DNA of 64,000 nucleotides from Acidimicrobiia bacterium (GTDB taxonomy: Bacteria; Actinomycetota; Acidimicrobiia; Actinomarinales; Actinomarinaceae). The notes beneath the pieces were generated by a model. That model was given only the letters and a program-made list of their open reading frames with translations, was not told where the DNA came from and made no database searches. Numbering within the stretch: position 1 is the first letter of the stretch; every line of letters starts with the position of its first letter. A program made the position numbers and the translations under genes. The DNA lies in NCBI GenBank assembly GCA_028376655.1, contig JAONAZ010000001.1:40784-104783 (forward strand), read 5' to 3'. This document shows, piece by piece, positions 10,776 to 57,673 of the stretch.

Positions 10776-10861
10776 AGCTTGTTTTGAATTAAAAATAATC
10801 CATAAAAAATTTATTGTTAAATTAAATAAAAATTTTAATTAAATGTAATCTTGTTAATAAT

Positions 10862-11680: not shown

Positions 11681-11681
11681 T

Positions 11682-33867: not shown

Positions 33868-34599
33868 TTAGGACTGACCTAACAAACTATAGAATTTTTT
33901 AATACTTTTTCTTATTGTAATTGGCAAAATATAGTAATAAGCCTTAATTAATTTTTTAATTTTTTTATGACTAAGGAACTTTAGAAATTCTGCAATAATT
34001 TTTGATTTAATTATCCTTGGCTTGTTCATAAAAAAATAAAGTAAATAATCTTTCTTTTCTATTCTTTTATTCCACTTTCTTCCATAAAGATACCTCAATA
34101 CTTTAGTAGGTTCGTTCGGGATTTTTATTTTTATATTATTAAAAAGCGAATCAGTAAAAGGAAGGATGGTATTTTTGGTCATATACATCCATTGCTTTTT
34201 ATCTTCTTGGTATGGACCACCTATAGACTTAAGTAACACTTTTTGCTTAGGTGTTAATTCGTAAAAATAAAAATCTATTAAGCACACCTTATCCTTATTG
34301 TTAAATTCAGCTTGGATAAAATATTCACCTGAATTCACAGGCTTATTTAAATCTAATTTAAGATCAGATTTTAGAAGTAGAGTTATTATCTTTTGCTTAT
34401 TTTTGTAATCTACTAAAAAATCAATATCATCATCATTTTTTAATAAAGAATTATCTCTTATGATCCCCAGAAGTGTTCCAAAAAATATTGAATATTCAAC
34501 ATCTTTTATTATTTCAATAACATAATCAAATGCATTATTTAGCGTTGCATCATCGATTGGTTTTTTGTTATCCAGCTTAAGGTCATCAAATTTTTTCAT
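33868..34599 (-). CDS. LicD-family phospho-group (phosphocholine/phosphonate) transferase
   Basis: FFGTLLGIIRDNSLLKNDDDIDFLV matches the LicD/fukutin-type nucleotidyltransferase-fold motif (GTLLG...DDDxD). Confidence 0.55.
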   Translation of the reverse strand: MKKFDDLKLDNKKPIDDATLNNAFDYVIEIIKDVEYSIFFGTLLGIIRDNSLLKNDDDIDFLVDYKNKQKIITLLLKSDLKLDLNKPVNSGEYFIQAEFNNKDKVCLIDFYFYELTPKQKVLLKSIGGPYQEDKKQWMYMTKNTILPFTDSLFNNIKIKIPNEPTKVLRYLYGRKWNKRIEKKDYLLYFFMNKPRIIKSKIIAEFLKFLSHKKIKKLIKAYYYILPITIRKSIKKFYSLLGQS

Positions 34600-34615
34600 A
34601 ATTTGTTACCTATTC

Positions 34616-35680
34616 TTATATAAATTTCTTCAGAGATGATTTTATTATACTTTCAATATCCCCTTTTGTGGGAGTAACTATAAAGTTATCAAGTCTACTG
34701 TTCATAAATACTTCATTAATTATTTGTTCAAGGCTAAAATCTGTAAAGTATGATTTATAAATTTCCTGGAGACCAAAATTATTAACTATATTTAGTATTG
34801 CTTTAACTTCAACTTCTAAGGCTTCAATAAATATTTCTTTTTCGAAATAATTATTTATTGAATTTAAGGTGAAAGCACACGCAAGACCGTGGGGTAGGTT
34901 AAATTTGTTTGTCAACGGATAAGATATTGCATGAGAAAGAGAAGTCCTAGTTATATTTATAGCCTGACCTGCAAGATTTGAAGCTTCTAATAATTTATTT
35001 CTTGATATTACTGAATATGTCCCATTAAGATTTAGCTCAAATGATTCAATTAAAAGAGATAAAGATTTCTTACAAAGAGATAGTGATTCATTTGTTTTAT
35101 TCTTGCTCCATAAACTATCGAGACAATGAGAAATACAATCAAGCATCGTCGGGATTAAAATATGATCAGGTAAAGAATTTATAAAACTTGGAACAAGATA
35201 AACAACTTCTGGAAGCATTATTATATTTTCAAAAGATTCTTTATTTTTGGTTTCTTTATTCCAAATCGTGGAAAAGCAAGTACTTTCAGCACCTGTTCCT
35301 GCCGTTGTTGGTATGGCAATATTGAATATTTTTGAAGAATAAATTTGATTTAACTCATGCACCGAAGATATCTTCTGATTAGCGTCACTAGCCATACAGT
35401 ATATTTTTGCTAAATCTAATACACTTCCACCACCAAGAGAAATTACCAAATCATGTTTTGTATTTTGATACAGATTTAAGACTTGATTAATTAATTCATA
35501 ATCTGGATATCTTTCTACTAAAAAAATATCAGATGGTTTTATTTGCTCCGAAAACTGGCTTATATAACTTCTCTCATGATTACCTGGACTTGTTATAAGC
35601 AAAATATTTTTTGATTCTTTAATCTTATTGCTGTGTAATAAGTGTTGAGAATGTTTTTTTTTAACTATTACTTGATTCAC
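34616..35680 (-). CDS. iron-containing (group III) alcohol dehydrogenase; putative phosphonoacetaldehyde reductase giving 2-hydroxyethylphosphonate
   Basis: LGGGSVLDLAKIY is the Fe-ADH GGGSxxDxAK motif, with a His-rich metal site later (HCLDSLW...HAISYPLT). It overlaps the ppd stop by 20 bp in the same operon. Confidence 0.6.
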   Translation of the reverse strand: MNQVIVKKKHSQHLLHSNKIKESKNILLITSPGNHERSYISQFSEQIKPSDIFLVERYPDYELINQVLNLYQNTKHDLVISLGGGSVLDLAKIYCMASDANQKISSVHELNQIYSSKIFNIAIPTTAGTGAESTCFSTIWNKETKNKESFENIIMLPEVVYLVPSFINSLPDHILIPTMLDCISHCLDSLWSKNKTNESLSLCKKSLSLLIESFELNLNGTYSVISRNKLLEASNLAGQAINITRTSLSHAISYPLTNKFNLPHGLACAFTLNSINNYFEKEIFIEALEVEVKAILNIVNNFGLQEIYKSYFTDFSLEQIINEVFMNSRLDNFIVTPTKGDIESIIKSSLKKFI

Positions 35681-36785
35681 TATTGACCTTTTTAATAAAG
35701 TTTTCTTTATTTTCTATAGGGGAATTTTTAGGACGTGGAAGATTTGATTCTGAATAATTTTGTACCTCGATTTCTATATATGTTGGTCCATTATTTGTAT
35801 CGAAGCTTGAGTCAGTTAAATCTTTAAGATTATTAAATGTAAATATATTTTCATAGCCAAAAGAGCTAAACAGTTTTTTTCTGTCAATAGAATTATATAC
35901 GTTCGGCTGTCCTCCAACAGATTCATGAGCTGAGTTATTAAAAACAATATGAAAAAAATTCTTCATCTTCTCTGTACCAATAATTCCTTGGTGACCCATA
36001 TGCATGAGAATCGATCCATCACCATCCAAACAAACAATGTTTTTATTGCTTAAAGTTTTAGCAAGACCAAAAGATATAGCAGAAGCATGACCCATCCCAC
36101 CTACGGTATAAAAATCATCTTCACTGAGATCTTGATCTACTCTAAACTGATAAAGCTCTCTAGAAAGTTTGCCAGTAGTAGAAATAAAAATTGTTTCAGT
36201 ACTAAATTTTTTGACAATACCTTCTAACGCTTTTTTTCTCGTAGGAAGATTTTTATTATTCTGAAATTTTCTTTGATCTTTTTCAAATGTATCTTTCCTT
36301 ACTACCAATGCAGATGGATTATTTGTTTTAATATTGATGCTTAAGTATTCATGTACTTCTTCTAAAGTGGTATTTTTATCAATTACTTTATAGTCTATTT
36401 GGAGTAATTCCAGAAGTTTTAGAGTAATTTTACCTTGAAATTGGTGTTGAGGTTCATCTTTAAAACCCGGTTCCCCTCTCCATCCTACTAGTAAAACAAA
36501 AGGGATATTGTAAACCTCACTGTTTAAAAGCGATGTATACGGATTAATAAAATTACCTAAACCAGAATTTTGCATATAAATCAGTGGGATTTTACCTGTT
36601 CCGAGACTGTAACCCATACAAATTCCTAATGCACTACCTTCATTAGTTGAAATTATGTGATTTTTATCATTAAAGTCAAAATGTAAAGATTTACTAAACT
36701 CAGACATTAGTGAATCTGGAACACCTGTGAAAAAGTCAATACCTAAACTTTGTAGTGAGTTAATAAAATTTTTAGCTTTCAGCAT
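35661..36785 (-). CDS. ppd: phosphonopyruvate decarboxylase (TPP-dependent)
   Basis: CLDGDGSILMHMGHQGIIG...FNNSAHESVGGQP is the GDG-X24-NN TPP-binding motif. Its 374-aa length matches Ppd/AepY. It lies directly downstream of the PEP mutase. Confidence 0.7.
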   Translation of the reverse strand: MLKAKNFINSLQSLGIDFFTGVPDSLMSEFSKSLHFDFNDKNHIISTNEGSALGICMGYSLGTGKIPLIYMQNSGLGNFINPYTSLLNSEVYNIPFVLLVGWRGEPGFKDEPQHQFQGKITLKLLELLQIDYKVIDKNTTLEEVHEYLSINIKTNNPSALVVRKDTFEKDQRKFQNNKNLPTRKKALEGIVKKFSTETIFISTTGKLSRELYQFRVDQDLSEDDFYTVGGMGHASAISFGLAKTLSNKNIVCLDGDGSILMHMGHQGIIGTEKMKNFFHIVFNNSAHESVGGQPNVYNSIDRKKLFSSFGYENIFTFNNLKDLTDSSFDTNNGPTYIEIEVQNYSESNLPRPKNSPIENKENFIKKVNSESSNS

Positions 36786-36789
36786 TTTT

Positions 36790-38085
36790 TTAAGAAATAT
36801 CGGTGAAGTTGATAATGTCTTTTATACTCATTAAATTTTTCTCAATTTCTTGAGTTCTTCCATTTTTAAGGATACTTTGAGCTGTGTTTACCATTGCTGG
36901 GTATGCACTTCGAAGAAGATGGTTCGCATAGATAACTACATCTACTCCTATCTGCTTGAATTCACTTAATGAAACATGGTTAAAGGTTGTTGGAACAACA
37001 ACAATTGGTGCTGAATGTTTATCTCTATATTTTTTTACAAACTCAAAAATTTCTTCTTCAGATTCACTTTTACTATGGATAAGAATTCCTCCAGCACCTG
37101 CACCTAAGTAAGCATCTGCTCTAGATAAAGCATCATTCATTCCTTGATTCAAAATTAAGCTTTCAATTCGAGCAATAATAAGAAAATCATTAGTCCTTTT
37201 GGCATTATTACCTGCTCTTATCTTCTCTGAGAAATTCTCAATACTATCTTGTTTTTGATTTGCAGTATCACCGAATAAAGAATTCTTTTTTAAACCCACT
37301 TTATCCTCAATAACTACAGCCGAAACACCAATTCTTTCTAAATTTTTAACAGTATATATAAAGTGTTCAGACTTACCTCCTGTATCTCCATCATAAATAA
37401 TTGGCTTTGAAGTTACTTCTATAATTTCATTAATAGTATTTATTCTTGAAGTTGTATCCACTGCTTCAATATCGGGTTTACCCTTTGCTGTTGAATCCGT
37501 GAGACTACTAGCCCACATTCCATCAAATTCATACTCAACTCCTGAGTCTATAACTCTTGTATTTTCAATAACAATACCTGATAATGCATTGTGGATATCT
37601 AAAAAAATAAGAGTATCTTTATTGTTGATAGCTTTAACTAAAGATTGTCGCCTTTCGTCTGTTGTTAGATTTTTTTTAACTTTTGATTTATATATTGATG
37701 AAGAGACACCTTCGGTATAGGGTATTTCTATAAGCTCACCATCCCATTCTTGTAATACTTTTATCACTTTTTCTCTAATATCCTTTTGAATACCTGTTTT
37801 CCAGTCATCCCCATGCACCACAATACTGGGTTTTAATTTTCTTAAATTTTCTGTATAATCATGGGTTTCTTGTGGAACAACTTCTGAAACATATTTAATA
37901 CCGGCAATTACACTTTTCCTGTCTTCAAAAGCCATAATTGGCATTTTTTTATAAGTTGAAATAGCATGATCAGTTAACAAACCAACGGTTACTTTCCCTA
38001 ATTTGCTTGCTTCTCGTAATATATTCATATGTCCCGAATGTAAAATATCTGCACTCATTCCAACATAAACATTTGAATTCAACAT
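36790..38085 (-). CDS. ppm: phosphoenolpyruvate phosphomutase with an N-terminal HxGH cytidylyltransferase domain (AepX-like)
   Basis: The C-terminal two-thirds carry the Ppm-specific EDKX5NS motif (IEDKVGLKKNS), DGDTGGK and IHNALSGIVIE. The N-terminal ~130 aa (VYVGMSADILHSGHMNILREASKLG...VVHGDDW) match TagD-type CTP-transferase HxGH/GDDW motifs. The 431-aa length equals fused AepX-type enzymes. Confidence 0.85.
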   Translation of the reverse strand: MLNSNVYVGMSADILHSGHMNILREASKLGKVTVGLLTDHAISTYKKMPIMAFEDRKSVIAGIKYVSEVVPQETHDYTENLRKLKPSIVVHGDDWKTGIQKDIREKVIKVLQEWDGELIEIPYTEGVSSSIYKSKVKKNLTTDERRQSLVKAINNKDTLIFLDIHNALSGIVIENTRVIDSGVEYEFDGMWASSLTDSTAKGKPDIEAVDTTSRINTINEIIEVTSKPIIYDGDTGGKSEHFIYTVKNLERIGVSAVVIEDKVGLKKNSLFGDTANQKQDSIENFSEKIRAGNNAKRTNDFLIIARIESLILNQGMNDALSRADAYLGAGAGGILIHSKSESEEEIFEFVKKYRDKHSAPIVVVPTTFNHVSLSEFKQIGVDVVIYANHLLRSAYPAMVNTAQSILKNGRTQEIEKNLMSIKDIINFTDIS

Positions 38086-39713: not shown

Positions 39714-42206
39714 TTATTTATTTGCAGTAAACGTGCTAAAAATTATTTCTTCCCAAAATTTGTTTAAATATTGTGTAGCAAATTTAGACAAATGACCTAT
39801 ATTGTCAACATACAGTAGGTTATCTTCTATGTTTACTTTACAAATATTATCATTACATAAAAGGGGTAATGGGTCATAATACAAAATATTTTCATTAACT
39901 AAACTTTTAAGTAACGACGTAAGAAGCAATCTACTTTTTAACACTAATTCATAATCTTGATCGCACAGTTGATAATTTCGCATTGTAATAATTTCAAATT
40001 CGTAGTTTATATCACTACTATTACATAGTTCGGGTGTGTCATCTATGAGAATTAAGGTTGATTCATTATTTTTAACTATATCAATTATTTCAGAAAGTCT
40101 TTTGTAGATATTGGGATAAGTTTCTGTGGTAACTCTAAAACTAGAGATGGAAAATACAATTACATCGTTATAATTTAAATTCTCAGAAAAATATTGAAGA
40201 TATTTTTCATCACTATTTTTAATACAACTCCTAGACCCAACACAGTAGTCAACTCCTGTAAGATCAGAAAGATGTCCCCATTCAACCAATACATGATTCT
40301 TGAAATTCTGTACTTCTTTTAATTGATTTATTGAAGGGTAATGATTAGTTACATGACTGTCTCCTATTAGAAAAATATCACTCTCTATATCACTACTTTG
40401 GAAACAGATTTCTAAATCATTAATTTCCTGGTCTGGAAAACTACAGTAAATATTTTCGTATATAGAAGATAAGTCTTGTGAATTTAGATTATTATTTGAA
40501 TCTTCTTGCCTAAAGGGTGATGTAAGTAAGACAATCAATAATGTTACAAAAAGTATGAATAGTGAACTCTTTTTCCATGAGAAATGATTAAATTTATTTC
40601 CATACCTTATAGGTGATTCAATAAATTTATAGGAAAAAAGAGAAATTACAATAATTATTACAAATAAAGTTTCATCTGTTAAGACTTTAAAATTTATCCA
40701 TTTGCTGAATGTCAAAACTGGAATATGCCACAAATATAGGGAATAGGATAGTAATCCAATATTTGTGATGAGTCGATTTTTTAAAAATGCTCTTGTAAAT
40801 ACGCCCTCTTTATTTTCGACAAGCAATAATAATGTCAGAATCACAACTAATATATGTAAATACTGCGGCAAATTTACTGTAGTAAATACCGTTAAAAAAA
40901 GTAAGCTCAATAAAAAACCATTTTTTTCATAATCTAACTTAACTTTATATTGATTTAGTAGAAGTGAAAGTAAGCAGCCAGCACCAACTTGCCAAAATCT
41001 AGAAAGTACTAAATAATATGAAAAGAGAAAATTTGTTTCAAAATTATTCAAGAACAATATTAGAGAAATAGCTGAAAGAAGAATTAATATATATGTAAAC
41101 ATTTTTCTTTTTTTTGAATTTGAATAAAAAGTAAGAAAAAGTAGTGGGTAAAAAAAATAAAATTGTTCTTCAACGCCTAGTGACCATGTATGTAAAAAAG
41201 AATTGTATTTTGATACATCTGAAAAATATTCAAATGATTGAATATATAAATAAATATTAGATGCTCCGACTAGAGAAAATAATCCTGTTAAAAAAGTACT
41301 TTTAAAGTAATAGTCCACTTTGAATAGTGCCAATGACGAAATTACAAACATAAAGAAAACAGCTGGGAAGATTCTCTTAAATCTCTTTATGTAAAAGTTG
41401 CTCAAGAGATTATTTGTTCCTTTTTTAGTAGACGCCATTAATGAATTTGTAACAACAAATCCAGATATTGTAAAAAATATATCTACACCTAAATAACCAT
41501 TTGGAATAAAGTCTGTGTTGTAATGGTTAAATATTACAAAAATAACTGCTAAAGCTCTGAGTCCATCAATTTCTTTTCTATACTCACTTTTTATTGATCT
41601 ATTTAATTTCACCCTGGATAAATAAATTAGAATAAAAAGAAGTGCAGTTAATATAAAACCATCATAAATATTTTCAAAAAATAATTTATTTTCAACCAAT
41701 AAATTTCTTTGGAAAGTATTAAAAATTAAAATCAGTAGAAAAAATTTAACTTTATATATATATTTCCTAATCCACAATGATATTAAAAAGAAGATTACCG
41801 AAATAAGATTATATAATTTAGGACTAGTTCCGTAATAGATATCTATCTGACCATTAATTGCACTAAATTTAGTAATTTTTGAAATACATTTTATCGATCC
41901 TAAATTTTCAGAAAGATCTAAAGCATAGGGTGTGGCTCTGTAATCTGACTTGTCCTCAGCTTCGTCCAATAAATTAATAGCTAAATTCTGAACTGTACAG
42001 GGATTTTTTTGTATTTCGTTCATAATGTAATTTTCATATGTTTCATCAGAAGAAATAACCAGCTTTGACTGAGCATACGCATCGAATGCATTTAAGGAAT
42101 ACATTATTATTGGAAGAAGTGTCAATAATATATAAATTTTTATATATTTTTTATTAAAGTTTTTATTAAAGTTTTTATTAAAGTTTTTATTAAAGTTTTT
42201 ATACAT
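39714..42206 (-). CDS. large acyltransferase family 3 protein with an N-terminal ~200-aa extension and a C-terminal SGNH domain (830 aa)
   Basis: EIDGLRALAVIFVIFNHYNTDFIPNGYLGVDIFFTISGFVV and WSLGVEEQFY are acyltransferase-3 motifs, and LIGDSHVTNH is an SGNH block. The N-terminus begins MYKNFNKNFNKNFNKNFNKKY, encoded by the 12-bp tandem repeat, followed by a signal-peptide-like segment. Confidence 0.75.
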   Translation of the reverse strand: MYKNFNKNFNKNFNKNFNKKYIKIYILLTLLPIIMYSLNAFDAYAQSKLVISSDETYENYIMNEIQKNPCTVQNLAINLLDEAEDKSDYRATPYALDLSENLGSIKCISKITKFSAINGQIDIYYGTSPKLYNLISVIFFLISLWIRKYIYKVKFFLLILIFNTFQRNLLVENKLFFENIYDGFILTALLFILIYLSRVKLNRSIKSEYRKEIDGLRALAVIFVIFNHYNTDFIPNGYLGVDIFFTISGFVVTNSLMASTKKGTNNLLSNFYIKRFKRIFPAVFFMFVISSLALFKVDYYFKSTFLTGLFSLVGASNIYLYIQSFEYFSDVSKYNSFLHTWSLGVEEQFYFFYPLLFLTFYSNSKKRKMFTYILILLSAISLILFLNNFETNFLFSYYLVLSRFWQVGAGCLLSLLLNQYKVKLDYEKNGFLLSLLFLTVFTTVNLPQYLHILVVILTLLLLVENKEGVFTRAFLKNRLITNIGLLSYSLYLWHIPVLTFSKWINFKVLTDETLFVIIIVISLFSYKFIESPIRYGNKFNHFSWKKSSLFILFVTLLIVLLTSPFRQEDSNNNLNSQDLSSIYENIYCSFPDQEINDLEICFQSSDIESDIFLIGDSHVTNHYPSINQLKEVQNFKNHVLVEWGHLSDLTGVDYCVGSRSCIKNSDEKYLQYFSENLNYNDVIVFSISSFRVTTETYPNIYKRLSEIIDIVKNNESTLILIDDTPELCNSSDINYEFEIITMRNYQLCDQDYELVLKSRLLLTSLLKSLVNENILYYDPLPLLCNDNICKVNIEDNLLYVDNIGHLSKFATQYLNKFWEEIIFSTFTANK
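42151..42198. repeat. 12-bp tandem repeat (ttattaaagttt) x4 plus a partial copy, at the start codon/N-terminus of the 830-aa acyltransferase gene
   Basis: ttattaaagtttttattaaagtttttattaaagtttttattaaagttttt seen directly. The unit length is a multiple of 3 and encodes (NFNK)n on the minus strand. Confidence 0.85.
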
Positions 42207-47423: not shown

Positions 47424-47467
47424 GTGGCCAGAGGCAGAATCGAACTGCCGACCCCTTGTTTTTCAGA
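47424..47467. repeat. attachment-site repeat: 44-bp perfect copy of the 3' half of tRNA-Phe (distal att)
   Basis: gtggccagaggcagaatcgaactgccgaccccttgtttttcaga is identical to 52351..52394 inside the intact tRNA-Phe gene. Confidence 0.85.
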
Positions 47468-47637
47468 TAAGGGCAGACCTTGTGATTTTATGTTACTTTA
47501 ATCTATTTATCGCTCAATATAGCTCATTGCATACAAGCCCTATGAGTGTGTTGGGTGGTAATGAATGGTAAGTGAAGATATGAGCGAGGGTTGGTTTGTG
47601 GTTGGTTTTGGTAGAACTTCCTAAGTTCCTAAAGTTC

Positions 47638-48075
47638 CTAGACGACTTCTTGTTGTAGTTTCTCTAAACCTAGTACTAACTCTAAATCTGTTTCTTCAAA
47701 CAATGCAGAATAGGTATCGGCAGTAATAGATATGCTTGCGTGTCCTAACCTCTTAGAAATAGAGAGTACATCGGCTCCCGATTGTCTTGCTAGGAATACA
47801 CTTGTATGTCTAAAGGTATGTAGATTAATATCCATATCCATTTCAAGTTCTTCTAATGCAGGTTTAAGAACTCTATGTTTAAAGTTCCTGCCGGTAATTG
47901 GTTGGTTGCAACCTCTGTTAGGAAACACATAAGGGCATATGCCTTGATAAAACTTCTCTTTATGTTCTCTTAGTTTGTTTAAGGTAATGTTATCTATTTG
48001 AATTGTTCTATTAGAACTATCGGTCTTTCTACTCCCTAAATGTTTTAAAAGGCAATACCCACCTATTGATTTCAT
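47638..48075 (-). pseudogene. tyrosine recombinase/phage integrase, C-terminal catalytic fragment only (145 aa)
   Basis: HTFRHTSVFLARQSGADVLSISKRLGHASISITADTYSAL contains the box II HxxR, a second His and the catalytic Tyr. The N-terminal core-binding and arm-binding domains (~200 aa) are missing. Confidence 0.7.
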
Positions 48076-48172
48076 ATGTTAAGTAGTGGGTAGAACTTTC
48101 CGAGAGATGTGAGCCATATGTAGTGGTTCTGTTCGGTCTTACTATTGCTAAATAATCACCATTAATCATATG

Positions 48173-49660
48173 CTAATAATTATTGATAATTTTTATATCA
48201 TCCATTAAATGGCCAAGTGAATTTTGCATTGCTGAATTAATATCTTTAAATCTTACTCTCAATGTTGTGACACCATCAGGTACTGTATATGTTCCAGAAT
48301 ATTCTGTCCATGTATACTGTGTAGAATATTGTCCAATTTCAACTTCTGAACCAGGTGCTCCCAAATAAAATCCAACAGTGTCTGTACCGCTTCTTCCTCT
48401 GTGCCAGAAACTCCAGCTTATTTCATCACCTGGAGAAACACTCACGTCTTGATATATTGAAGATAATCCATTTGAGTTTAATTCAAGATGGTGAGTGCCA
48501 TCTACAGATGCAACACCCTTATGTCCTGATTCCCAAATTTCAATTGGTCTATCACCCGATTCATCTAAATTCTGATTAGTCCATCCAGGGAAAGAACTAT
48601 TAGTAAAAAATTCAGTTGCATTACTTGCTACTGGATCGCCGTCGTAGTTTTCAAATGAACCATTTGTAATCAAATCAGTTGGTGGAAGTGTGGTTGTGGT
48701 TGTGGTTGTGGTTGTAGTTGTGGTTGTAGTTGTGGTTGTGGTTGTGGTTGTGGTTGTAGTTGTAGAAGTAGTAGTAACAGCAAGAGTTGGATTATCTGTA
48801 CTGAGGTTGCCGTTATCATCGTATGCAACAATCTCTAAGGCATAAGATGTTCCAGCAGTTAAGGCGTCTAAAAAGATAGAGTTATTATCATTTTCTCTTA
48901 TATATTCACCCTTTAGTACACCATCTAGATAGAAGTAATAACCAGCAACATTGATATTATCTTCTGCTGGTCTCCATAAAACTTCAAAGTATGTTTCTGT
49001 TGTGTTTTGTATATTTATTGTCTTATCTGGCCAAGTAGGTAGTTCATCATCTACATAAACAGTTGTTGTTGAAGACGTAGTTGTTGTAGATGTAGTTGAA
49101 GATGTAGTTGTTGAAGACGTAGTTGTTGCAGGCGTAGTTGTTGCAGGCGTAGTTGTTGCAGGCGTAGTTGTTGATGTACTTGATGGTGCAGCAGCTGTTG
49201 TAGAAGTAGTTGTTGAATCATCGGTGATAGAGATATCCTCAACAGTGTCCAAGTCAAGAATTACAATATCGTTATCCTCTTCAACAATCTCATTGGTATC
49301 GCTACCTTCTATAACAATCACATTTTCAATTGAGTCAACAATATTTTCATCAGGCTGGTTTGAATTAACATTATTAAATGCAAATAAAGAGAAAAATGTT
49401 AAACCCGAAATAAGGCCATACAGGTAGCCTCTTCTTGTAAATAGCGCAAGAAATGCTGAAAGAAAACCTGATAAATAATTCCAGAACAAAATAAAAAATA
49501 AGAATCTTCTCTTTTCAGTAAAATATTTTGTTAGTTCAATTACCTGGTCATGAGTTAATTTTTGTTCAGAAGAATTAACATCTAGTTTTAATTTATTGGC
49601 AGCCTTTAAAACTTCATCAATTGATCTTTTTAATCTGTCTGCAAGAATATATAACTTCAT
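48173..49660 (-). CDS. membrane-anchored mucin-like surface protein: N-terminal TM segment, acidic region, Thr/Pro-rich linkers, FN3-like domain, (Thr)~27 tract, C-terminal beta-rich putative carbohydrate-binding domain
   Basis: Translation shows STTTPATTTPATTTPATTT, an FN3-like block (YFEVLWRPAEDN...YALEIVAYDDNGNLS) and a 27-residue poly-Thr run. The underlying DNA has 6-bp and 15-bp tandem repeats. Confidence 0.7.
   Translation of the reverse strand: MKLYILADRLKRSIDEVLKAANKLKLDVNSSEQKLTHDQVIELTKYFTEKRRFLFFILFWNYLSGFLSAFLALFTRRGYLYGLISGLTFFSLFAFNNVNSNQPDENIVDSIENVIVIEGSDTNEIVEEDNDIVILDLDTVEDISITDDSTTTSTTAAAPSSTSTTTPATTTPATTTPATTTSSTTTSSTTSTTTTSSTTTVYVDDELPTWPDKTINIQNTTETYFEVLWRPAEDNINVAGYYFYLDGVLKGEYIRENDNNSIFLDALTAGTSYALEIVAYDDNGNLSTDNPTLAVTTTSTTTTTTTTTTTTTTTTTTTTTTTTTLPPTDLITNGSFENYDGDPVASNATEFFTNSSFPGWTNQNLDESGDRPIEIWESGHKGVASVDGTHHLELNSNGLSSIYQDVSVSPGDEISWSFWHRGRSGTDTVGFYLGAPGSEVEIGQYSTQYTWTEYSGTYTVPDGVTTLRVRFKDINSAMQNSLGHLMDDIKIINNY
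48688..48776. repeat. imperfect tandem hexanucleotide repeats (ggttgt/agttgt) encoding poly-Thr
   Basis: tggttgtggttgtggttgtggttgtagttg... seen directly. Confidence 0.85.
49118..49162. repeat. 15-bp tandem repeat x3 (gtagttgttgcaggc) encoding TTPAT repeats
   Basis: cgtagttgttgcaggcgtagttgttgcaggcgtagttgttgcaggc seen directly. Confidence 0.85.
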
Positions 49661-49781
49661 TTAAGAGATATTAATGTGTAACTTCATTTAAGAGCTATTT
49701 TAGTAGACAAGAAGGGGGTGACAGAGTTGTAGGTGTGTGCAGAAGTGTGTGCAGTTTTGGTATTGATAGGGGAAAACCCTA

Positions 49782-49824
49782 GTGGCCAGAGGCAGAATCG
49801 AACTGCCGACCCCTTGTTTTTCAG
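49782..49824. repeat. attachment-site repeat: 43-bp perfect copy of the tRNA-Phe 3' half (internal att between the two island segments)
   Basis: gtggccagaggcagaatcgaactgccgaccccttgtttttcag is identical to 52351..52393. Confidence 0.85.
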
Positions 49825-49886
49825 GGAAAAACCATTATGGCCTACTTGTTTCATTTTAATAGAATCATATAGATTTAAACAATTTT

Positions 49887-50249
49887 TTAATAAATGAGAA
49901 CTCTGTCTGCTTCAAAAGTTAACTCAACTAACTTATTAGGAGTTGCAGGCGTAAAGCCAAGCTCTTCTAATTGTTCTTTTGTAATACCACGAGCGGCAGC
50001 TGATTTTCCAGATGCATATAAATGTGCACCCTTTTCCTTTAGTACTACAAGATGATCTTCAAGAGTTCCTAATCCAACTCCCTTCATTTCTTGAGTGGTT
50101 ATTTCATGGAGACTTGTTACCCCATCTCCCGCACAGAAAATAGTGACTTCATTACCATCTTGAATAGCTGATTTTGCGACTAAAAATCCTAAGACTGCAC
50201 GACTTGGATTTTCAACTCCTGTAATTATATGTACTAACAATTTATTCAT
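49887..50249 (-). CDS. DsrE/DsrF-like family protein (sulfur-relay/peroxiredoxin-like fold)
   Basis: 120 aa, with VHIITGVENPSRAVLGFLVAKSAIQDGNEVTIFCAGDGV resembling the DsrE-family N-terminal region including the conserved Cys. Confidence 0.4.
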   Translation of the reverse strand: MNKLLVHIITGVENPSRAVLGFLVAKSAIQDGNEVTIFCAGDGVTSLHEITTQEMKGVGLGTLEDHLVVLKEKGAHLYASGKSAAARGITKEQLEELGFTPATPNKLVELTFEADRVLIY

Positions 50250-50291
50250 ACCTCAATATTAAAACTAAAGACTCGATAATATCTATTAGTT

Positions 50292-51674
50292 ATGAATTTT
50301 CTCTCCATGATTAAGAACAAACTTGGTGCATTGTCTATCTCATTAGGAATTTTTGCAGTTGTCACCACTATTAACTCCCAAACAATTCAACTTACACTTT
50401 GGGATAGAGATTTCGAAAAACCAATTGCTATTTTGCAATGGGTGAATCTCTCCTACTTATTAATGGCTGCTGTCTCAACTCTTTTAATTGGTAGATTTGC
50501 TGATTTAATTGGAAGAAAAAGAATGTTTATCTATGGTCTTTTAATCTACGGACTTTCAACATCTCTTCTTGTTGCTGTAAATTCTTTTGAACTTTTACTT
50601 GTTGCTAGGGGGCTCCAAGCATTAGGGGCACAATGTGTCATGGGTCTTAGTGTTGGTCTAATGACAACTATGTTTGGTGATGAGAATAGAGGATCTGCAG
50701 TTGGGTTAATTGCCTCAATTGGTTCTGTCTCTGTACTGTTTATTCCATTAACTATTGGCTACTTAGCTGAATACAACAACTGGAGGCTGTTTTTCATCTT
50801 ACCAGTAGCAATTTCTTTTATTAGTGCATATATTTTGCTTCGAGTAAATCTTGGCACAGAGACTGTAACAATTGATAAAGTAGATGTTAAGTCTTTAGTG
50901 TTTATTACATTAATACTCTCTAGTTTCTCATCAGCACTTACATTTTTTAGAGTTGAAAATATTACAAATACTATTAGCTTTCTACTTCTCTTCTTATGTC
51001 CTTATTTCATCTGGTTGTTCTATAAAAGACAGAAATCTGTTGCTAACCCTATCTTTCCACGAGGAGTGTTTTCAGATAAACGATTTCAAATCTCTCTTTT
51101 CACAATTGTTATCTACTTCATCTCTATTGGTGGATGGTCTATTCTCTCCCCATATTTTTTCACACAGGGTTTAGGTTTAAACTCTTTTGAGTATGGACTC
51201 ATTGGAACAGGGTTTGGTTTAATTCTTGTACCAATGGCGATTGTTGCTGGAAGAATTTATGACAAAAAAGGACTGAGAACTTCTCTTTATATTGGAGCTT
51301 ATGGAAATATTATTGCTGGGATAATCTGGTTAACAACTCCTTACTTTCTTAATATTCCTTATATCCTGCTTAATGGAATTTTTGGTATTGCCCCAGTTGT
51401 ATCTTCTGTTGCAACCGATGCTGAGATAATGTCTAAGTTCAATCTAGAGAACAGAGGGACGGGTTCATCCATGATTGAAACCCTTCATGTAATATTTGCT
51501 TTTGCTGGAACAGTTCTCTACTCAACAATATATGATTTTTCATTAGAGATATTTGTTGGAGGCGAAGCAACATATAGTACAGAAATGTTCTGCTTTATTA
51601 CAGGTATTCTTGCAATAATTAATTGGGGTATCCTTGCTATTCTTGTGAAAAAAAATGAGTCGCAACTTCAATAA
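50292..51674 (+). CDS. MFS transporter
   Basis: 460 aa, 12-14 TM helices. GRFADLIGRKRMF is the MFS motif A-like (G-R-x-x-D-R-x-G-R-K). Confidence 0.7.
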   Translation: MNFLSMIKNKLGALSISLGIFAVVTTINSQTIQLTLWDRDFEKPIAILQWVNLSYLLMAAVSTLLIGRFADLIGRKRMFIYGLLIYGLSTSLLVAVNSFELLLVARGLQALGAQCVMGLSVGLMTTMFGDENRGSAVGLIASIGSVSVLFIPLTIGYLAEYNNWRLFFILPVAISFISAYILLRVNLGTETVTIDKVDVKSLVFITLILSSFSSALTFFRVENITNTISFLLLFLCPYFIWLFYKRQKSVANPIFPRGVFSDKRFQISLFTIVIYFISIGGWSILSPYFFTQGLGLNSFEYGLIGTGFGLILVPMAIVAGRIYDKKGLRTSLYIGAYGNIIAGIIWLTTPYFLNIPYILLNGIFGIAPVVSSVATDAEIMSKFNLENRGTGSSMIETLHVIFAFAGTVLYSTIYDFSLEIFVGGEATYSTEMFCFITGILAIINWGILAILVKKNESQLQ

Positions 51675-52348
51675 AAAGGTAGTCAACTCGTTCCCAGTTA
51701 ATATTTAAATCGATATTTTTCACTCTTATTGAAATTTTAGCTTTCCTCGTCCTCTTCTTTTTGAGCTACCCAAGTAATTTTATATCTACTGAAAGGGATA
51801 CCCCATTTTTCAATATGTTTAAGTAGCTTTTTTTCTTGACGCTGTGTTAGGTAGGCCATATTCATATTGTAAACAGGGTAAACAATTTGTTCTCTTTAAA
51901 TATTGAGGCCATACATATACATATAGAGGGGGTTCATATTGACATATCCTTTACTTTTAGAAAGTTGCCTTATATTGCCCGAGGTGTAACGCATTATATA
52001 GAGGCACCGGCAAATTGATATATGCATTAAGTGTCTAGCTAGGTGTCTTGCTCTCAAGATACTACGACTTTTTTGTGTGTAGACAGGGGGATAGTTTTTT
52101 TTCCTAGATACATTATCCACCACCCCCAATACTTAACTCCCTTTTTTTTCTCCCAAATATAGGGTGGTTTTTTACATCATCATTTATAGGCTATTTCAAA
52201 ACAAGTGCAATAAATATAGGATTTAGAAATGTCATATATGGTGTATATCGTTCCAATGTTTATAGGGTTTTACATATATCTGTGGGGCGATAATGGGGAC
52301 GATTAGCTTAGGCGTTCGTTCTGTACTCTGGAATAACCAATGGAACAT

Positions 52349-52424
52349 TGGTGGCCAGAGGCAGAATCGAACTGCCGACCCCTTGTTTTTCAGACAAGTG
52401 CTCTACCGACTGAGCTATCTGGCC
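52349..52424 (-). tRNA. tRNA-Phe (anticodon GAA), CCA encoded
   Basis: Reverse complement GGCCAGATAGCTCAGTCGGTAGAGCACTTGTCTGAAAAACAAGGGGTCGGCAGTTCGATTCTGCCTCTGGCCACCA folds as a cloverleaf: 7-bp acceptor, GCTC/GAGC D-stem, anticodon loop CTGAAAA, TTCGATT T-loop. Confidence 0.9.
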
Positions 52425-52427
52425 GTA

Positions 52428-52505
52428 TGGCGGGGACGACGGGATTCGAACCCGCGACCTCCTGCGTGACAGGCAGGCGTGAACTCCAGACTTCACCACG
52501 CCCCC
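52428..52505 (-). tRNA. tRNA-Asp (anticodon GTC), CCA encoded
   Basis: Reverse complement GGGGGCGTGGTGAAGTCTGGAGTTCACGCCTGCCTGTCACGCAGGAGGTCGCGGGTTCGAATCCCGTCGTCCCCGCCA. The anticodon arm CCTGCCTGTCACGCAGG is identical to E. coli tRNA-Asp. It lies 3 nt upstream of tRNA-Phe. Confidence 0.85.
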
Positions 52506-55352: not shown

Positions 55353-55661
55353 ATGAATAAAAAAATATATTCTATTTGTGGAGATTCAAATCAGATTGTT
55401 GACTTTGAAACGATAGGTAATGATCCCAATTTTGTCTTTAAAAATGATCCAAATTTTGAAACGATAGTACTTTATGACCCAGAAGGAAACATTGTAAATG
55501 TTAATTCTTGGTTAGAGTGCGCTAATTATGTAAACGGTGTGTGGACTAATGGTCTGTACGAACAACTTGATTTTGAAAGAATGCTATTTTTCTTGACAGT
55601 ATCTTCAATTTTTTTATATCTAGTGTTTAAAAAGATTTGGAAAGTTAGAAATTATCAATGA
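55353..55661 (+). CDS. small hypothetical protein with a C-terminal TM segment
   Basis: 102-aa ORF whose stop overlaps the start of the next gene (ATGA). Confidence 0.3.
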   Translation: MNKKIYSICGDSNQIVDFETIGNDPNFVFKNDPNFETIVLYDPEGNIVNVNSWLECANYVNGVWTNGLYEQLDFERMLFFLTVSSIFLYLVFKKIWKVRNYQ

Positions 55662-57673
55662 GCAGTAATATTAGGAAATTAACATTCTTTTTGACTACTT
55701 TTTTGCTTCTACTCTTACCATGGTTTCTACAAAATAGCTCTGAAGAAATCGAACCTGTTCTAATAGATAAAAAAGGTACTGCTTTTTATCAAACAAACAC
55801 TTGCGAATTTACACTTTTTGATATTTTAAGTCAAAATTTTTTAAATGACGAAATAAATATCTTGCCTGATACTTATTCAAGCGTAAAGTGTAATTCTAAA
55901 ATTAATGGTGTAGATTACTTTGAATCAGATATAAAGGTTTACATTGGTACAAATGCAAATATTGATTTTCTTTTACAATCGCTCATATGGCTATTACTAA
56001 TAGCTTTGATCCCAAAATCAAATGTAAGAAAATTTAAATACAACAACATAATACCAATTGCTATTACGTCTATTTTATTCACACTTCATCTACTTGGTGA
56101 AAAGAATTTCTATACTTCATTTGCAAAAAGTTACAGTAGCAATATTTCCTTTGATAACTACTTTTTAACTTCATTAATAGCGGCATTAATTTTTATATTG
56201 ATTATTTTTGATGACCTATTAAAAGATAGGTTTTATAACTTAATTAATTATTTTCCTTTTATGTTTCTATTTATAGGTGCATATAATACCTTCAATCTAA
56301 ATTTCTATTTGATAATTCTGGTCTACATAGGATTAAGAATCTTTTTTGAAACTAAAGTAAATGTTAAACTTACTTTGCTTTACGCTTTATTGACAGTTTT
56401 CTGGTTAGTGAATAATGAAAATATATATTTATACTTTGATGTTGATAAATTAAAAGGGTTTGTAAGTAGTTCACAAAGTACTTACTCACAAATTTTTTGG
56501 ATTATTTCTTTTTACTTTGTTGTTCTTGCTTTGTATACAATACTTAATGAATCCAAAGATTTTGTTAATCTTAAAATGATAAGATACAACTTTCTTTTAG
56601 TTGGTGGACTTGTTTCTTTGTTTGGAATACTTTCTGCATTTTACCCCTTTATAAGATTTTTAACTTATTACAACCTAGGTCTAAATAAGCTTGGAATGGG
56701 AAACTTTACAGCGATAGAAGGTAATACTTGGAGAGGTATATCACATAGCGCTGAGGCCTTAGGGGAATACGCTGCATTTACAATCTTATTTGCTGTTTTA
56801 ATTTCATTTCATTATAAAATTAAAATTTCAAATTTTGAAATAGTGTTAATATTTTTAACTTTATTGAACTTATTTAGGTCTAATAATTTTGCAGCTGTAT
56901 CTTCAATGGTCATTTTTATTACTCTCTTCTTTATGAATCAGTTGATAAAGAGTAAATCCTTTAAAATCACACTGATTATATTTGTTATTTTTTCTTCATT
57001 AATTATTTATAGTAAGACAAGTGAATATAGCTATAAATTTGTTAGCAGTGTACTACTAAATGAAGCGGTGAATGCTTCTATAATCTCTGATACCTTACCT
57101 GGAAATGAGGATGGATTTACTGCAGCTGATTTTTCTAATTTTGAAATATTTTTACAAGAATCAAAAGAAGACAGTAGTCTTTCAAGTTCACTTTATTATG
57201 CCTTGGACCAATATACTAATGATGGAAATATCAAATATTTGCCAGATAGTGTAGCCATGGTTAGCCAAATTTCAGTCCCTATTAATCGATCTGAAAAATG
57301 GGGAATATTTATAGCTAAGTATGACCCTGATTTCTTTGAATTCATTTTTGGAAAAGGTCCGTTACAGTTGGCAGATTATTACTTAAGTCATGAAACAAAA
57401 TATAACGATGGCCTAGTTCTCCCACATTCCTCTTTGCTTGACCTATTAATATTCTTTGGGATATTTGGAGTTTTTAGTTTATTAATATATTCTACTTATT
57501 TAATTTACAGCAACAAAAAGAATGCGGTCTACAATTACTTGTTTTTGTTTTTATTGATAAATTACATGAAAAGTGACTCGATTCTTTATCTCTCAAGCTT
57601 CATTCTTTTATATTTTACAACTTATTTTTATAAGTTTTCCTTTGCCATAGAAGGAAATCTTTATAATGAATAA
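55658..57673 (+). CDS. large polytopic membrane protein (671 aa; O-antigen polymerase/ligase- or GT-C-like)
   Basis: More than 14 predicted TM helices with a ~120-aa hydrophilic loop. Followed by a co-directional GT gene with an 8-bp overlap. Confidence 0.5.
   Translation: MSSNIRKLTFFLTTFLLLLLPWFLQNSSEEIEPVLIDKKGTAFYQTNTCEFTLFDILSQNFLNDEINILPDTYSSVKCNSKINGVDYFESDIKVYIGTNANIDFLLQSLIWLLLIALIPKSNVRKFKYNNIIPIAITSILFTLHLLGEKNFYTSFAKSYSSNISFDNYFLTSLIAALIFILIIFDDLLKDRFYNLINYFPFMFLFIGAYNTFNLNFYLIILVYIGLRIFFETKVNVKLTLLYALLTVFWLVNNENIYLYFDVDKLKGFVSSSQSTYSQIFWIISFYFVVLALYTILNESKDFVNLKMIRYNFLLVGGLVSLFGILSAFYPFIRFLTYYNLGLNKLGMGNFTAIEGNTWRGISHSAEALGEYAAFTILFAVLISFHYKIKISNFEIVLIFLTLLNLFRSNNFAAVSSMVIFITLFFMNQLIKSKSFKITLIIFVIFSSLIIYSKTSEYSYKFVSSVLLNEAVNASIISDTLPGNEDGFTAADFSNFEIFLQESKEDSSLSSSLYYALDQYTNDGNIKYLPDSVAMVSQISVPINRSEKWGIFIAKYDPDFFEFIFGKGPLQLADYYLSHETKYNDGLVLPHSSLLDLLIFFGIFGVFSLLIYSTYLIYSNKKNAVYNYLFLFLLINYMKSDSILYLSSFILLYFTTYFYKFSFAIEGNLYNE

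Follow-up and report, generated by a model that had tools for sequence, protein, structure and literature searches.

The stalk gene and its modules

The stretch of Candidatus Actinomarina DNA analysed here, a window of 64,000 nucleotides, carries one gene for a threonine-rich stalk protein, whose parts are as follows, in order from the start codon:

48173..49660, minus strand: complete coding sequence of the Thr-rich stalk protein, 495 aa plus stop codon (open reading frame list, ATG start)
49646..49699, no strand assigned: direct duplication of the start region, 27 bp, covering the ribosome site and start codon (repeat search, 89% identity)
49505..49660, minus strand: IF2_N-like domain, aa 1-52, basic, net charge +4, presumed cytoplasmic
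49373..49504, minus strand: membrane region, with hydrophobic aa 53-74, TRRG at aa 75-78 and hydrophobic aa 79-96 (hydropathy, AlphaFold)
49217..49372, minus strand: acidic spacer, aa 97-148, net charge -17 (composition)
49061..49216, minus strand: first Ser/Thr/Pro/Ala-rich tract, aa 149-203, (TTTPA)3 and then TTTSS variants (composition)
48767..49051, minus strand: FN3 domain, aa 204-298 (Pfam fn3 and PDB FnIII profile matches)
48689..48775, minus strand: second Thr tract, aa 296-324, TTTS plus 25 uninterrupted Thr (codons (ACA ACC)n)
48176..48682, minus strand: CBM4/9-like (DUF642-related) beta-jelly-roll, 169 aa, aa 327-495, predicted (AlphaFold, Foldseek)

Our analysis confirms that this open reading frame is real and that the architecture assigned to it in a preliminary description is essentially correct, in that the order of modules given there stands, while the 52-residue N-terminal domain and the second hydrophobic segment had been missed. 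Family profiles of the N-terminal domain, the FN3 domain and the C-terminal domain match no other open reading frame of the window, and no other contains a stretch of at least 60% Ser/Thr. The protein has about 137 Ser/Thr residues in total, mostly in disordered tracts, and a run of 25 threonines would arise by chance with a p of about 1e-19 even at its own threonine content of 18%. An exact-sequence look-up of the protein returned no match, the NCBIfam search gave sub-threshold noise only (aggregation-promoting factor, and a SasC/FmtB domain at E=4.6e-5 for P0092), and a literature search combining Actinomarina with threonine-rich proteins found no papers. The best reading of these results is an uncharacterised family that is assembled from known modules and conserved in the Actinomarina envelope. 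The C-terminus (...HLMDDIKIINNY) lies within the beta domain, where an LPXTG motif followed by a hydrophobic segment and a basic tail is absent. At the other end of the gene, the upstream copy of the duplicated start region leads into a dead-end open reading frame of 8 codons, and the matches of a promoter and terminator scan did not exceed chance expectation.

The N-terminal domain ends in an invariant EKRR(F) motif and has 32 of 53 positions invariant across the family. Pfam IF2_N (PF04760) scores the window segment at E=0.0011 and 19.1 bits against a cutoff of 25.3, and it matches all seven family members (E up to 0.1, best 1.9e-7). Searching PDB sequences with the domain profile gave nothing meaningful, and the AlphaFold pLDDT of the domain is only 60-72. 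Its mean pairwise identity is 79%, second only to that of FN3 and above the 72% of the C-terminal domain. Such conservation of a cytoplasmic-type domain suggests that the protein does more than carry glycan passively.

In the membrane region, the first segment alone exceeds a Kyte-Doolittle value of 1.6, and AlphaFold predicts helices at aa 53-74 and 80-99 with GxxxG-like motifs. The N-terminal tail contains 12 Lys/Arg against 2 in the loop between the segments, which favours an N-in orientation. With two true spans, the membrane would not separate the stalk from the N-terminal domain. The two predicted helices, together with positive charges on either side of the first segment, could be read as a hairpin that keeps both termini cytoplasmic and the Thr-rich, FN3 and CBM parts intracellular. 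We regard such a hairpin as highly improbable, since the second segment is short and marginally hydrophobic and since the FN3 and C-terminal modules are, in all their other occurrences, found with signal peptides, lipoboxes, T9SS sorting tails or in phage fibres. For example, the FN3 module is found at 66-77% identity in Actinomarina lipoproteins that have lipobox signal peptides and Thr linkers. The stalk protein is presumably exposed at the cell surface.

After the membrane region, the acidic spacer evolves faster than any other part of the gene (dS 0.7, dN 0.2) and, with a pLDDT below 50, is predicted to be disordered. The first tract consists of 77% Ser plus Thr (55% Thr, 22% Ser) and contains a 15-bp DNA repeat of 7.5 copies at 49065-49174, while the second is encoded by a 6-bp repeat, (ACA ACC)n, of 12.5 copies at 48689-48763. 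Tandem Repeats Finder thereby bears out the two repeat units that had been pointed out before, although the threonine run, put at 27 residues, is in fact 25 uninterrupted residues after TTTS. It had also been proposed that such repeats would allow length variation, and comparison of the Thr tract among relatives agrees with this, as the run ranges from 9 to 30 in orthologs and from 23 to 27 among cassette copies, which is direct evidence of tract-length variation in natural populations. Thr-rich linkers are common across the exported proteins of Actinomarina.

The FN3 domain named in the preliminary description was upheld by profile searches. A Pfam scan of the whole protein does not report fn3, but the isolated segment matches PF00041 at E=3.7e-5 and 24.3 bits against a cutoff of 25, and all 15 homologous segments scanned match it as well (E up to 0.01, best 1.1e-8). 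The family profile also finds solved FnIII structures, such as those of chitinase A1 (1k85, 2.4e-11) and fibronectin (about 4e-10), and residues W30, Y42 and Y74 are invariant. Low AlphaFold confidence in this domain is uninformative, because FN3 was misaligned in the full-length alignment (A2), leaving those columns without homolog rows.

The C-terminal domain had been described as beta-rich, lectin-like and about 200 residues long; it measures 169 residues, and structure prediction agrees with the beta-rich, lectin-like part of this description. The domain begins with NGSFE, ends with DDIKIINNY and carries the motifs IEIWESGH and WSFWHRGR. Over aa 330-495, blocks of 10 residues have AlphaFold pLDDT values of 67-96, mostly 80-96, and the best Foldseek match of the model in the PDB is CBM4-2 (4bj0_A; E=2.1e-9, TM 0.75, rmsd 3.4, 178 columns), with further matches to CBM16, CBM22 and CBM61. 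At the sequence level, CBM_4_9 (PF02018) scores the stalk protein at E=0.0019 and 19 bits, below its cutoff of 25.9, and distant members are likewise sub-threshold. DUF642 (PF04862) does not match the window protein, but has precomputed matches on 65%-identical homologs (P0005, P0006, P0065), scores P0124 at 35.9 bits, and has been given by NCBI as the name of one distant member. The predicted fold is shared with the galactose-binding-like superfamily of CBM4/CBM_4_9, CBM16, CBM22 and DUF642 (TM 0.69-0.75 to CBM4-2, CBM16 and CBM61); the edge strands NGSFE... and ...DDI are typical of this superfamily, and some homologs bear the name DUF642 or CBM_4_9. Unlike the members of that superfamily, however, the domain forms a large sub-family of its own, scoring below the cutoffs, with 3,667 representatives at 50% clustering and 204 species loci. 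A search for a solved or characterised close homolog within this sub-family found none. Distinct types of the domain are about 63-65% identical and are combined with or without FN3, and the partner modules are always extracytoplasmic (PKD, He_PIG, DUF11, Big_9, T9SS sorting tail). On the strength of the modelled fold, we consider the domain a putative carbohydrate-binding module.

A tRNA-Phe cassette and a distant core locus

The stalk gene lies in one of two adjoining segments that are bounded by copies of part of a tRNA gene:

52349..52424, minus strand: intact tRNA-Phe (GAA), the integration target, followed by tRNA-Asp at 52428-52505 (ARAGORN; Rfam 75.3 bits)
49825..52348, no strand assigned: neighbour cassette with a DsrE-like gene (49887-50249, minus), an MFS transporter gene (50292-51674, plus) and a 350-bp arm by the tRNA-Phe (Pfam)
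49782..49824, minus strand: tRNA-Phe 3' half, proximal direct repeat, dividing the stalk cassette from the DsrE-MFS cassette (repeat search)
48032..48169, minus strand: remnant of gene Y, with only about the first 45 nt homologous
47638..48075, minus strand: integrase (tyrosine recombinase) remnant, C-terminal 145 aa with HxxR...H...Y (Pfam)
47424..47466, minus strand: tRNA-Phe 3' half, 43 nt, distal direct repeat and cassette end (repeat search)

The 43-nt tRNA-Phe 3' half is present in three copies, including the one within the intact tRNA-Phe, and the copies at 47424-47466 and 49782-49824 substantiate the earlier suggestion that the stalk gene sits on a mobile segment. Partial-tRNA direct repeats at an island tRNA hot spot, as observed here, are what defines the additive tRNA cassettes of the Actinomarinales glycotype island fGI1 (PMC7771536). 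An origin of the flanking repeat in tmRNA or another RNA was ruled out, as Rfam and ARAGORN identify it as the tRNA-Phe 3' half. The array of tRNA cassettes in Actinomarinales has already been published (PMC7771536; bioRxiv 10.64898/2026.04.03.716425), in the latter case with 84 complete Actinomarina genomes. As in the fGI1/HVR cassettes described so far (Lopez-Perez et al. 2020; Nielsen & Lui 2026), those in the window are in tandem and use the tRNA-Phe in a boundary cluster of Phe, Asp, Lys and Arg tRNAs. In contrast to the present case, however, PMC7771536 and bioRxiv 10.64898/2026.04.03.716425 describe neither stalk-gene cargo, nor an integrase (the word is absent), nor the capture of a core gene.

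The cassette with the stalk gene is also found in five independent metagenome contigs (including L088, L091, L094 and L095). In L091 and L094, the window segment 49718-51999 is absent and the stalk gene stands directly after the arm. The integrase remnant matches Phage_integrase (PF00589) at E=6.6e-9 and 36.2 bits over profile positions 95-169 of 172, and NCBIfam Xer models match it from position 150 or so to the end. It lacks the box-I TGLRSGE region of P0252, P0255 and P0256, including the box-I arginine, and, judged by its sequence, the remnant would not provide the full catalytic domain of an active tyrosine recombinase. It is 87-90% identical in nucleotides to the remnants in L085 and L086, and an exact-sequence look-up of the fragment gave no match. 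L087 contains a 5.6-kb element with int, HTH and an AAA_25 protein of replication type. Gene Y is intact elsewhere (L089, L090, L093, L095), where it encodes a 219-aa DUF2306-like membrane protein; the Pfam DUF2306 match is weak and was obtained on the intact copy in L095.

These remnants bear on the possibility that the stalk gene is a decaying passenger, that is, a non-functional duplicate in a degenerate cassette. The integrase is truncated, gene Y has been cut to about 45 nt, the start region of the stalk gene is duplicated and no convincing promoter was found, all of which would fit with decay. However, the open reading frame of 495 codons is intact despite its slippage-prone repeats, and the five metagenome copies of the cassette, from independent samples, are full length (454-503 aa), all ending in ...NNY. 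In addition, dN/dS against core-locus orthologs is 0.03-0.38 in all globular parts of the protein, well under 1, which indicates a functional gene. We therefore consider decay very unlikely.

The orthologs used in this comparison reside at a conserved core site that is far from the island and has the order glmU-prs-whiB-GDPD-yqeY-X-...-hom. The stalk family occupies this site in all 11 long Actinomarina loci examined, in one or two copies that are sometimes tandem paralogs, and its neighbours there include yqeY, an HExxH lipoprotein and a PG_binding/reprolysin-like (secreted metalloprotease-like) protein. Homology between the cassette copy and the core copies is limited to 48162-49672, which corresponds to the coding sequence plus about 12 nt on each side. 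The sequence 'TAG nnn ATGATTAA' at the 3' junction was at one point taken as a scrap of the core-locus lipoprotein, which, if right, would have proven the direction of capture; this assignment was withdrawn, since the sequence is the start of gene Y (MINGDYLAI...), and what is left at the junction is an 8-nt microhomology.

The preliminary description placed the mobile segment within a glycosylation and phosphonate-decoration locus, and this placement is accurate. The window has genes for PepM-cytidylyltransferase, Ppd, Fe-ADH and LicD at 33.9-38.1 kb; these and many glycosyltransferase genes are within 10-15 kb of the stalk gene, and glycosyltransferases, acyltransferases, Wzy_C and Bac_transf flank the stalk cassette on both sides. 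From this neighbourhood it had been proposed that the stalk protein plausibly accepts the glycan or phosphonoglycan that the adjacent genes make, in which case it would have been imported on the mobile segment for that purpose. Apart from these genes, the proposal could draw on the many Ser/Thr residues of the disordered tracts and on the Wzy_C protein at 17892-19208, the sole, and ambiguous, candidate for a protein glycosyltransferase among the scanned open reading frames. The superfamily of this protein includes the protein O-oligosaccharyltransferases PglL and PilO. However, the orthologs stand at the core site, remote from the island, in all 11 loci, and the position of the cassette is dictated by the tRNA-Phe attachment site, so that proximity to the glycan and phosphonate genes reflects cassette integration and not function. 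Moreover, the same slot in other genomes holds unrelated cargo (acetyltransferase, GSDH), Thr-rich linkers are a general trait of exported proteins in Actinomarina, and no GT39/PMT protein O-glycosyltransferase was found among the 28 larger open reading frames scanned (about 29 smaller ones of at least 100 aa lay outside the scan). A dedicated acceptor role is thus improbable, and our results establish no connection between protein glycosylation and the phosphonate pathway, nor do they reveal a new mechanism.

A predicted glycan-binding stalk and related systems

Taking these observations together, we lean towards the interpretation that the window carries a functional copy of a conserved Actinomarina envelope family, predicted to be a membrane-tethered, wall-spanning, glycan-binding stalk, that has been captured into a cassette. 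According to this interpretation, the IF2_N-like domain would stay in the cytoplasm and the hydrophobic anchor in the membrane, whereas some 230 residues, comprising the acidic spacer, the Ser/Thr/Pro tract, FN3 and the 25-Thr tract, would form a stalk that, when fully extended, would measure about 30-40 nm, enough for crossing a Gram-positive wall. The CBM4/9-type beta-jelly-roll at its tip may bind a glycan, either a polymer of the cell's own wall or a polysaccharide from outside. In the stalk, the Thr tracts would serve as extended spacers whose lengths may drift in frame by slippage of (ACA ACC)n and the 15-bp repeats. The usual place of the family is the core locus yqeY-X-...-hom, from which the coding sequence alone may have been captured into the array of additive tRNA-Phe cassettes that borders the glycotype island, and the cassette copy could act as an extra or exchangeable surface module.

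It is plausible that the Thr tracts are O-glycosylated, and they probably are, if the analogy with Cellulomonas holds, another actinobacterium, where GT-39 enzymes heavily O-mannosylate the Ser/Thr-rich linkers beside CBMs, with up to about 65 hexoses (PMC11727336). The GH6 proteins Celf_3184 and Cfla_1896 of Cellulomonas fimi and C. flavigena resemble the stalk protein in having a disordered Ser/Thr(Pro)-rich linker that adjoins a CBM. They differ in that they are secreted and combine a catalytic GH6 domain with CBM2, while the stalk protein has no catalytic domain but an anchor, a cytoplasmic N-terminal domain, FN3 and a CBM4/9-like domain. Among the features of an O-mannosylation substrate, Ser/Thr tracts and predicted disorder are seen in the stalk protein, and its export is something we infer.

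A different role that has to be considered is that of a transmembrane glycan sensor or coupler similar to RsgI or RodZ, in which binding by the CBM would be relayed to the cytoplasmic IF2_N-like domain and a partner. The RsgI protein of Clostridium thermocellum consists of a cytoplasmic N-terminal domain, a transmembrane segment, a Thr/Pro linker and a CBM, and the stalk protein has the same layout. The higher conservation of the N-terminal domain than of the C-terminal domain and the invariant EKRRF would also agree with a sensor, and one family member has been automatically named RodZ by JGI. The likeness is nevertheless one of layout only. The N-terminal domain is IF2_N-like, Pfam and NCBIfam give no match to RsgI_N or HTH, and next to the gene at the core locus lie yqeY and proteins resembling secreted metalloproteases, with no adjacent sigma factor or regulator and neither sigI nor mreB. 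We accordingly view a sensor of this kind as unlikely, although it deserves mention. A more specific version, which we offer as a long shot, is a coupler particular to Actinomarinales, in which the CBM would read the cell's own wall glycopolymer, or glycotype, and the IF2_N-like head would report to or organise the cytoplasm, the types of C-terminal domain would be matched to glycotypes, and the cassette would swap the matching lectin along with the island. If this were true, the diversification of surface glycans, which is thought to be driven by phages, would be tied to a dedicated reader of self-glycan in one of the smallest free-living cells.

Returning to the favoured interpretation of a captured envelope stalk, few marine bacteria are as abundant or as streamlined as Actinomarina, whose genomes measure about 1.1 Mb. 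That one or two core copies are kept at a fixed locus and a mobile copy is present in some lineages points to a significant and so far undescribed component of the envelope. The stalk protein is a concrete candidate for a surface lectin or stalk of Actinomarina and for a substrate of protein O-glycosylation, and the cassette would illustrate the capture of a core gene into a tRNA-cassette array that diversifies the cell surface.

An origin of the islet in a phage or prophage was also considered and rejected, as it contains no phage genes and the CBM fold alone is common to tail proteins. The C-terminal module does occur in phage minor tail and fibre proteins. In particular, minor tail proteins of the gp20 type in mycobacteriophages and the central fibre 8zdo have a similar fold with 35% identity (E about 3e-4) and have the motif W..Y.G.Y.VP.GVT.LR in common with it. 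This resemblance is weak and only partial, the stalk gene stands in a cellular context and the rest of the cassette is not phage-like. CenC-like CBM modules of phages recognise glycans of the host envelope.

Modular architecture of the Thr-rich protein

The Thr-rich protein represents a conserved, uncharacterised envelope family of Actinomarina that is made of known module types. Its ORF, at 48173-49660 on the minus strand, encodes 495 aa, which we divided into the following segments from the sequence and a composition script.

Segments of the Thr-rich protein
aa 1-52, basic domain
aa 53-74, very hydrophobic segment
aa 75-78, TRRG
aa 79-96, second, weaker hydrophobic segment
aa 97-148, acidic spacer with a net charge of -17
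aa 149-203, tract of 77% Ser+Thr including (TTTPA)3
aa 204-298, globular segment (FN3)
aa 296-324, TTTS followed by 25 Thr without break
aa 327-495, C-terminal domain of 169 aa

Tandem Repeats Finder reports a 6-bp repeat, (ACA ACC)n, in 12.5 copies at 48689-48763 and a 15-bp repeat in 7.5 copies at 49065-49174. The architecture given in the preliminary description holds overall, except that the Thr run has 25 rather than 27 residues and the C-terminal domain 169 rather than about 200, and that the N-terminal domain and the second hydrophobic segment had been overlooked.

Searched as a whole, the protein gives two sub-threshold Pfam matches, CBM_4_9 (E=0.0019) and IF2_N (E=0.077), and no fn3 is reported. 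The claimed FN3 domain is nevertheless borne out by isolated segments: a profile of 15 homologous FN3 segments matches the solved FnIII domains of chitinase A1 (2.4e-11) and fibronectin (about 4e-10), and Pfam fn3 is matched by all 15, the window segment just missing the cutoff (E=3.7e-5, 24.3 bits against 25). The AlphaFold model is uninformative over this part because the supplied alignment was misaligned there. IF2_N is matched by all seven N-domain representatives (best 1.9e-7, window 0.0011), and 32 of 53 positions in this domain are invariant, including EKRRF abutting the membrane segment. The C-terminal domain is modelled confidently within the full protein (pLDDT 67-96 per 10-residue block, mostly 80-96), and by Foldseek it falls among the CBM4, CBM16, CBM22 and CBM61 jelly-rolls, with Rhodothermus CBM4-2 (4bj0_A) as the best match (E=2e-9, TM 0.75), which supports the lectin-like C-terminus described earlier at the level of fold.

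A C-domain profile run against 1.84 billion representatives recovers 3,667 proteins at E up to 1e-3, and a genome scan places the domain in 204 species loci of many phyla. Its members are often giant multidomain proteins with PKD, He_PIG, DUF11, Big_9 or a T9SS sorting tail, their source names, where given, are 'hypothetical' or 'DUF642 domain-containing', no solved structure of a close relative was found, and phage minor tail and fibre proteins show weak sequence matches together with fold matches. The C-domain is therefore a widespread, uncharacterised and consistently extracytoplasmic branch of the CBM4_9/DUF642 superfamily. Two metagenome proteins of 287-295 aa, P0017 and P0018, are distant relatives (38-40% identity) in which an N-terminus resembling a Flp-type pilin leader (…GSILTLESIAVAAV…) replaces the IF2_N-like head.

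The core locus of the family

The nearest genome loci belong to Candidatus Actinomarina single-cell genomes, and WhiB and sortase genes occur on contigs bearing homologs. In all 11 long Actinomarina loci examined (four metagenome contigs of 31-402 kb and seven species-representative genomes) the family gene directly follows yqeY, within the conserved order tRNA-Gln...glmU-prs-whiB-GDPD-yqeY-X-...-hom-thrC, where X is the family gene, present at some loci as two tandem paralogs. Next comes a Thr-linker lipoprotein with a HEAAHAYS (HExxH) motif and a weak SprT-like match, and then an 855-876-aa protein with PG_binding_1, cadherin and reprolysin-like (HELGHSLG) parts.

Core-locus stretches for these downstream proteins
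L005, 6520-9968
L007, 7964-11429
L003, 8969-9898

With these neighbours, the core locus amounts to a small envelope-protein cluster, and linkers rich in Thr seem to be common to exported proteins of Actinomarina in general. The family is modular: short forms (310-372 aa) lack FN3, long forms (467-495 aa) include it, and the C-domain comes in at least three types that share about 63-65% identity. At the DNA level the window resembles the core loci only over 48162-49672, a span that covers the CDS and some 12 nt to either side; the closest locus is L005 (86% identity). This marks the window copy as a gene-sized segment of core-locus ancestry that now lies in a cassette array.

Some family sequences are broken or cut short. 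On a nanopore-assembled 335-kb contig (L001 9294-10327) the core-locus copy is split by frameshifts into at least four ORFs, and P0020-P0022 end early, within the Thr tract. Either the repeats caused assembly errors or the genes may truly be pseudogenes. Where the family lies on short-read metagenome contigs, these typically stop at the Thr repeats.

The tRNA-Phe cassette array

The window carries tRNAs for Phe, Asp, Lys and Arg, and the 43-nt 3' half of tRNA-Phe occurs three times, once in the intact gene and twice as a half-site, delimiting two cassettes.

Features of the array
52349-52424, intact tRNA-Phe gene
50292-51674, plus strand, MFS transporter (tRNA-proximal cassette)
49887-50249, minus strand, DsrE-like protein (tRNA-proximal cassette)
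49782-49824, tRNA-Phe half-site
48032-48169, stump of gene Y
47638-48075, integrase (tyrosine recombinase) remnant
47424-47466, tRNA-Phe half-site

The second cassette holds the Thr-rich gene and the integrase remnant, a C-terminal piece of 145 aa without the box-I arginine region. A 24-mer from the 3' junction was found in eight metagenome contigs, five of which carry the Thr-rich gene as a cassette beside tRNA-Phe half-sites, in several arrangements: L091 and L094 have tRNA-Phe, a 350-bp arm, the Thr-rich gene, a stump of another gene and a half-site, with neither the DsrE/MFS segment nor the integrase remnant; L088 has the gene between two half-sites; and L095 has a half-site, the gene and an intact 219-aa 'gene Y'. 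The mobile segment proposed earlier is upheld, and the cassette is of a known type, tRNA-targeted cassettes having been published for the Actinomarinales glycotype island (PMC7771536; bioRxiv 10.64898/2026.04.03.716425). GC is 0.34-0.36 in the array (47424-52424) against about 0.28 in the surrounding island. A 27-bp direct duplication at 49646-49699 covers the ribosome-binding and start-codon region of the Thr-rich gene, its upstream copy reading ATG AAG TTA CAC ATT AAT ATC TCT TAA, and may have been left behind by the recombination that put the gene at this site.

Homologs of gene Y and of the integrase in other contigs
L095, 2016-2672, intact gene Y
L085, 8001-8312, integrase homolog
L086, 2334-2636, integrase homolog
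L087, 4618-5130, integrase homolog

Gene Y encodes a membrane protein with a weak DUF2306 match and in L090 follows an integrase 3' end; about 45 nt of homology to it is left in the window. The 24-mer, at first taken for a scrap of the core-locus lipoprotein gene, turned out to come from the start of gene Y, and the former reading is withdrawn; the two genes share an 8-nt microhomology (ATGATTAA) at their starts. The integrase remnant is 87-90% identical to those of two other islands (L085, L086), which also lie between tRNA-Phe and a half-site, with other cargo. All detectable homologs are fragments of 82-236 aa, none being intact, and the two Actinomarinales papers do not mention an integrase. 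The contig L087 is 5.6 kb long, encodes int, HTH_3 and an AAA_25 replication-type protein, and may be part of the active element from which these cassettes are seeded. The L085 island holds a multi-cassette array at 6900-12000, with at least five consecutive half-sites (about 7013, 8472, 9291, 10294 and 11938), one of which ARAGORN calls a pseudo-tRNA-Phe.

Divergence, topology and the neighbouring island

Each globular part of the window copy shows a dN/dS of 0.03-0.38 relative to core orthologs, and the metagenome cassette copies are full length in all five cases (454-503 aa). Synonymous divergence from L005 and L006 over 48176-49660 is mosaic, with dS of 0.05-0.08 in the CBM, 0.26-0.48 in FN3, about 0.36 in the membrane part and 0.7 in the acidic spacer, a pattern that points to intragenic recombination, perhaps at the Thr-repeat tracts. 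Ahead of the CBM, core-locus orthologs have Thr runs of 9, 11, 19, 20, 24, 26 or 30 residues and the window copy has 25; the five cassette copies from metagenomes have 23, 23, 24, 25 and 27. Short-form proteins that are otherwise nearly identical vary only in how many TTTTTVPP units they contain (e.g., P0054 with 340 aa and P0056 with 355 aa). These counts confirm the predicted length variation.

The modules beyond the membrane region are elsewhere found only in proteins that are exported, and the N-tail carries a strong positive charge; the most economical model is an N-in, C-out tether. In such a tether the disordered acidic and Thr-rich parts and FN3 would form a stalk that carries a putative glycan-binding jelly-roll through the wall. 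Two hydrophobic helices are predicted, however, and these would leave both protein ends on the same side of the membrane. Given the conserved IF2_N-like head, the protein may also have a part in coupling or sensing, in an RsgI-like or RodZ-like layout, but the likeness is one of layout, and no defining feature of either family is present. O-glycosylation of the Thr tracts is plausible by analogy with Cellulomonas, where GT-39 enzymes attach as many as about 65 hexoses to Ser/Thr linkers beside CBMs (PMC11727336); GT39 was not found among the 28 larger window ORFs scanned, about 29 smaller ones (at least 100 aa) lying outside the scan.

The tRNA cluster lies inside a locus with glycosyltransferases, AT3-SGNH acyltransferases, Wzy_C, Bac_transf and phosphonate genes, of which 33868-38085 is a phosphonate decoration cluster.

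Phosphonate cluster and adjoining exporter
36790-38085, PEP mutase (PepM) with an N-terminal cytidylyltransferase fusion
35661-36785, phosphonopyruvate decarboxylase
34616-35680, Fe-alcohol dehydrogenase (Fe-ADH)
33868-34599, LicD-family transferase
32222-33832, ABC exporter adjoining the cluster

The proposal that the Thr-rich protein accepts the glycan or phosphonoglycan made here has only this proximity behind it, which the tRNA-Phe attachment site explains and which the family's home at the core locus contradicts; we consider this role very improbable. The original observation is confirmed and its interpretation partly supported, in that architecture, mobile context and repeat variability hold, whereas a functional link with the neighbouring pathway does not. 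Four large island ORFs (2332-3954, 8486-9952, 12503-13834 and 55658-57673) have no Pfam match, and two AT3-SGNH fusion O-acyltransferases are encoded in the island at 27085-28989 and 39714-42206.
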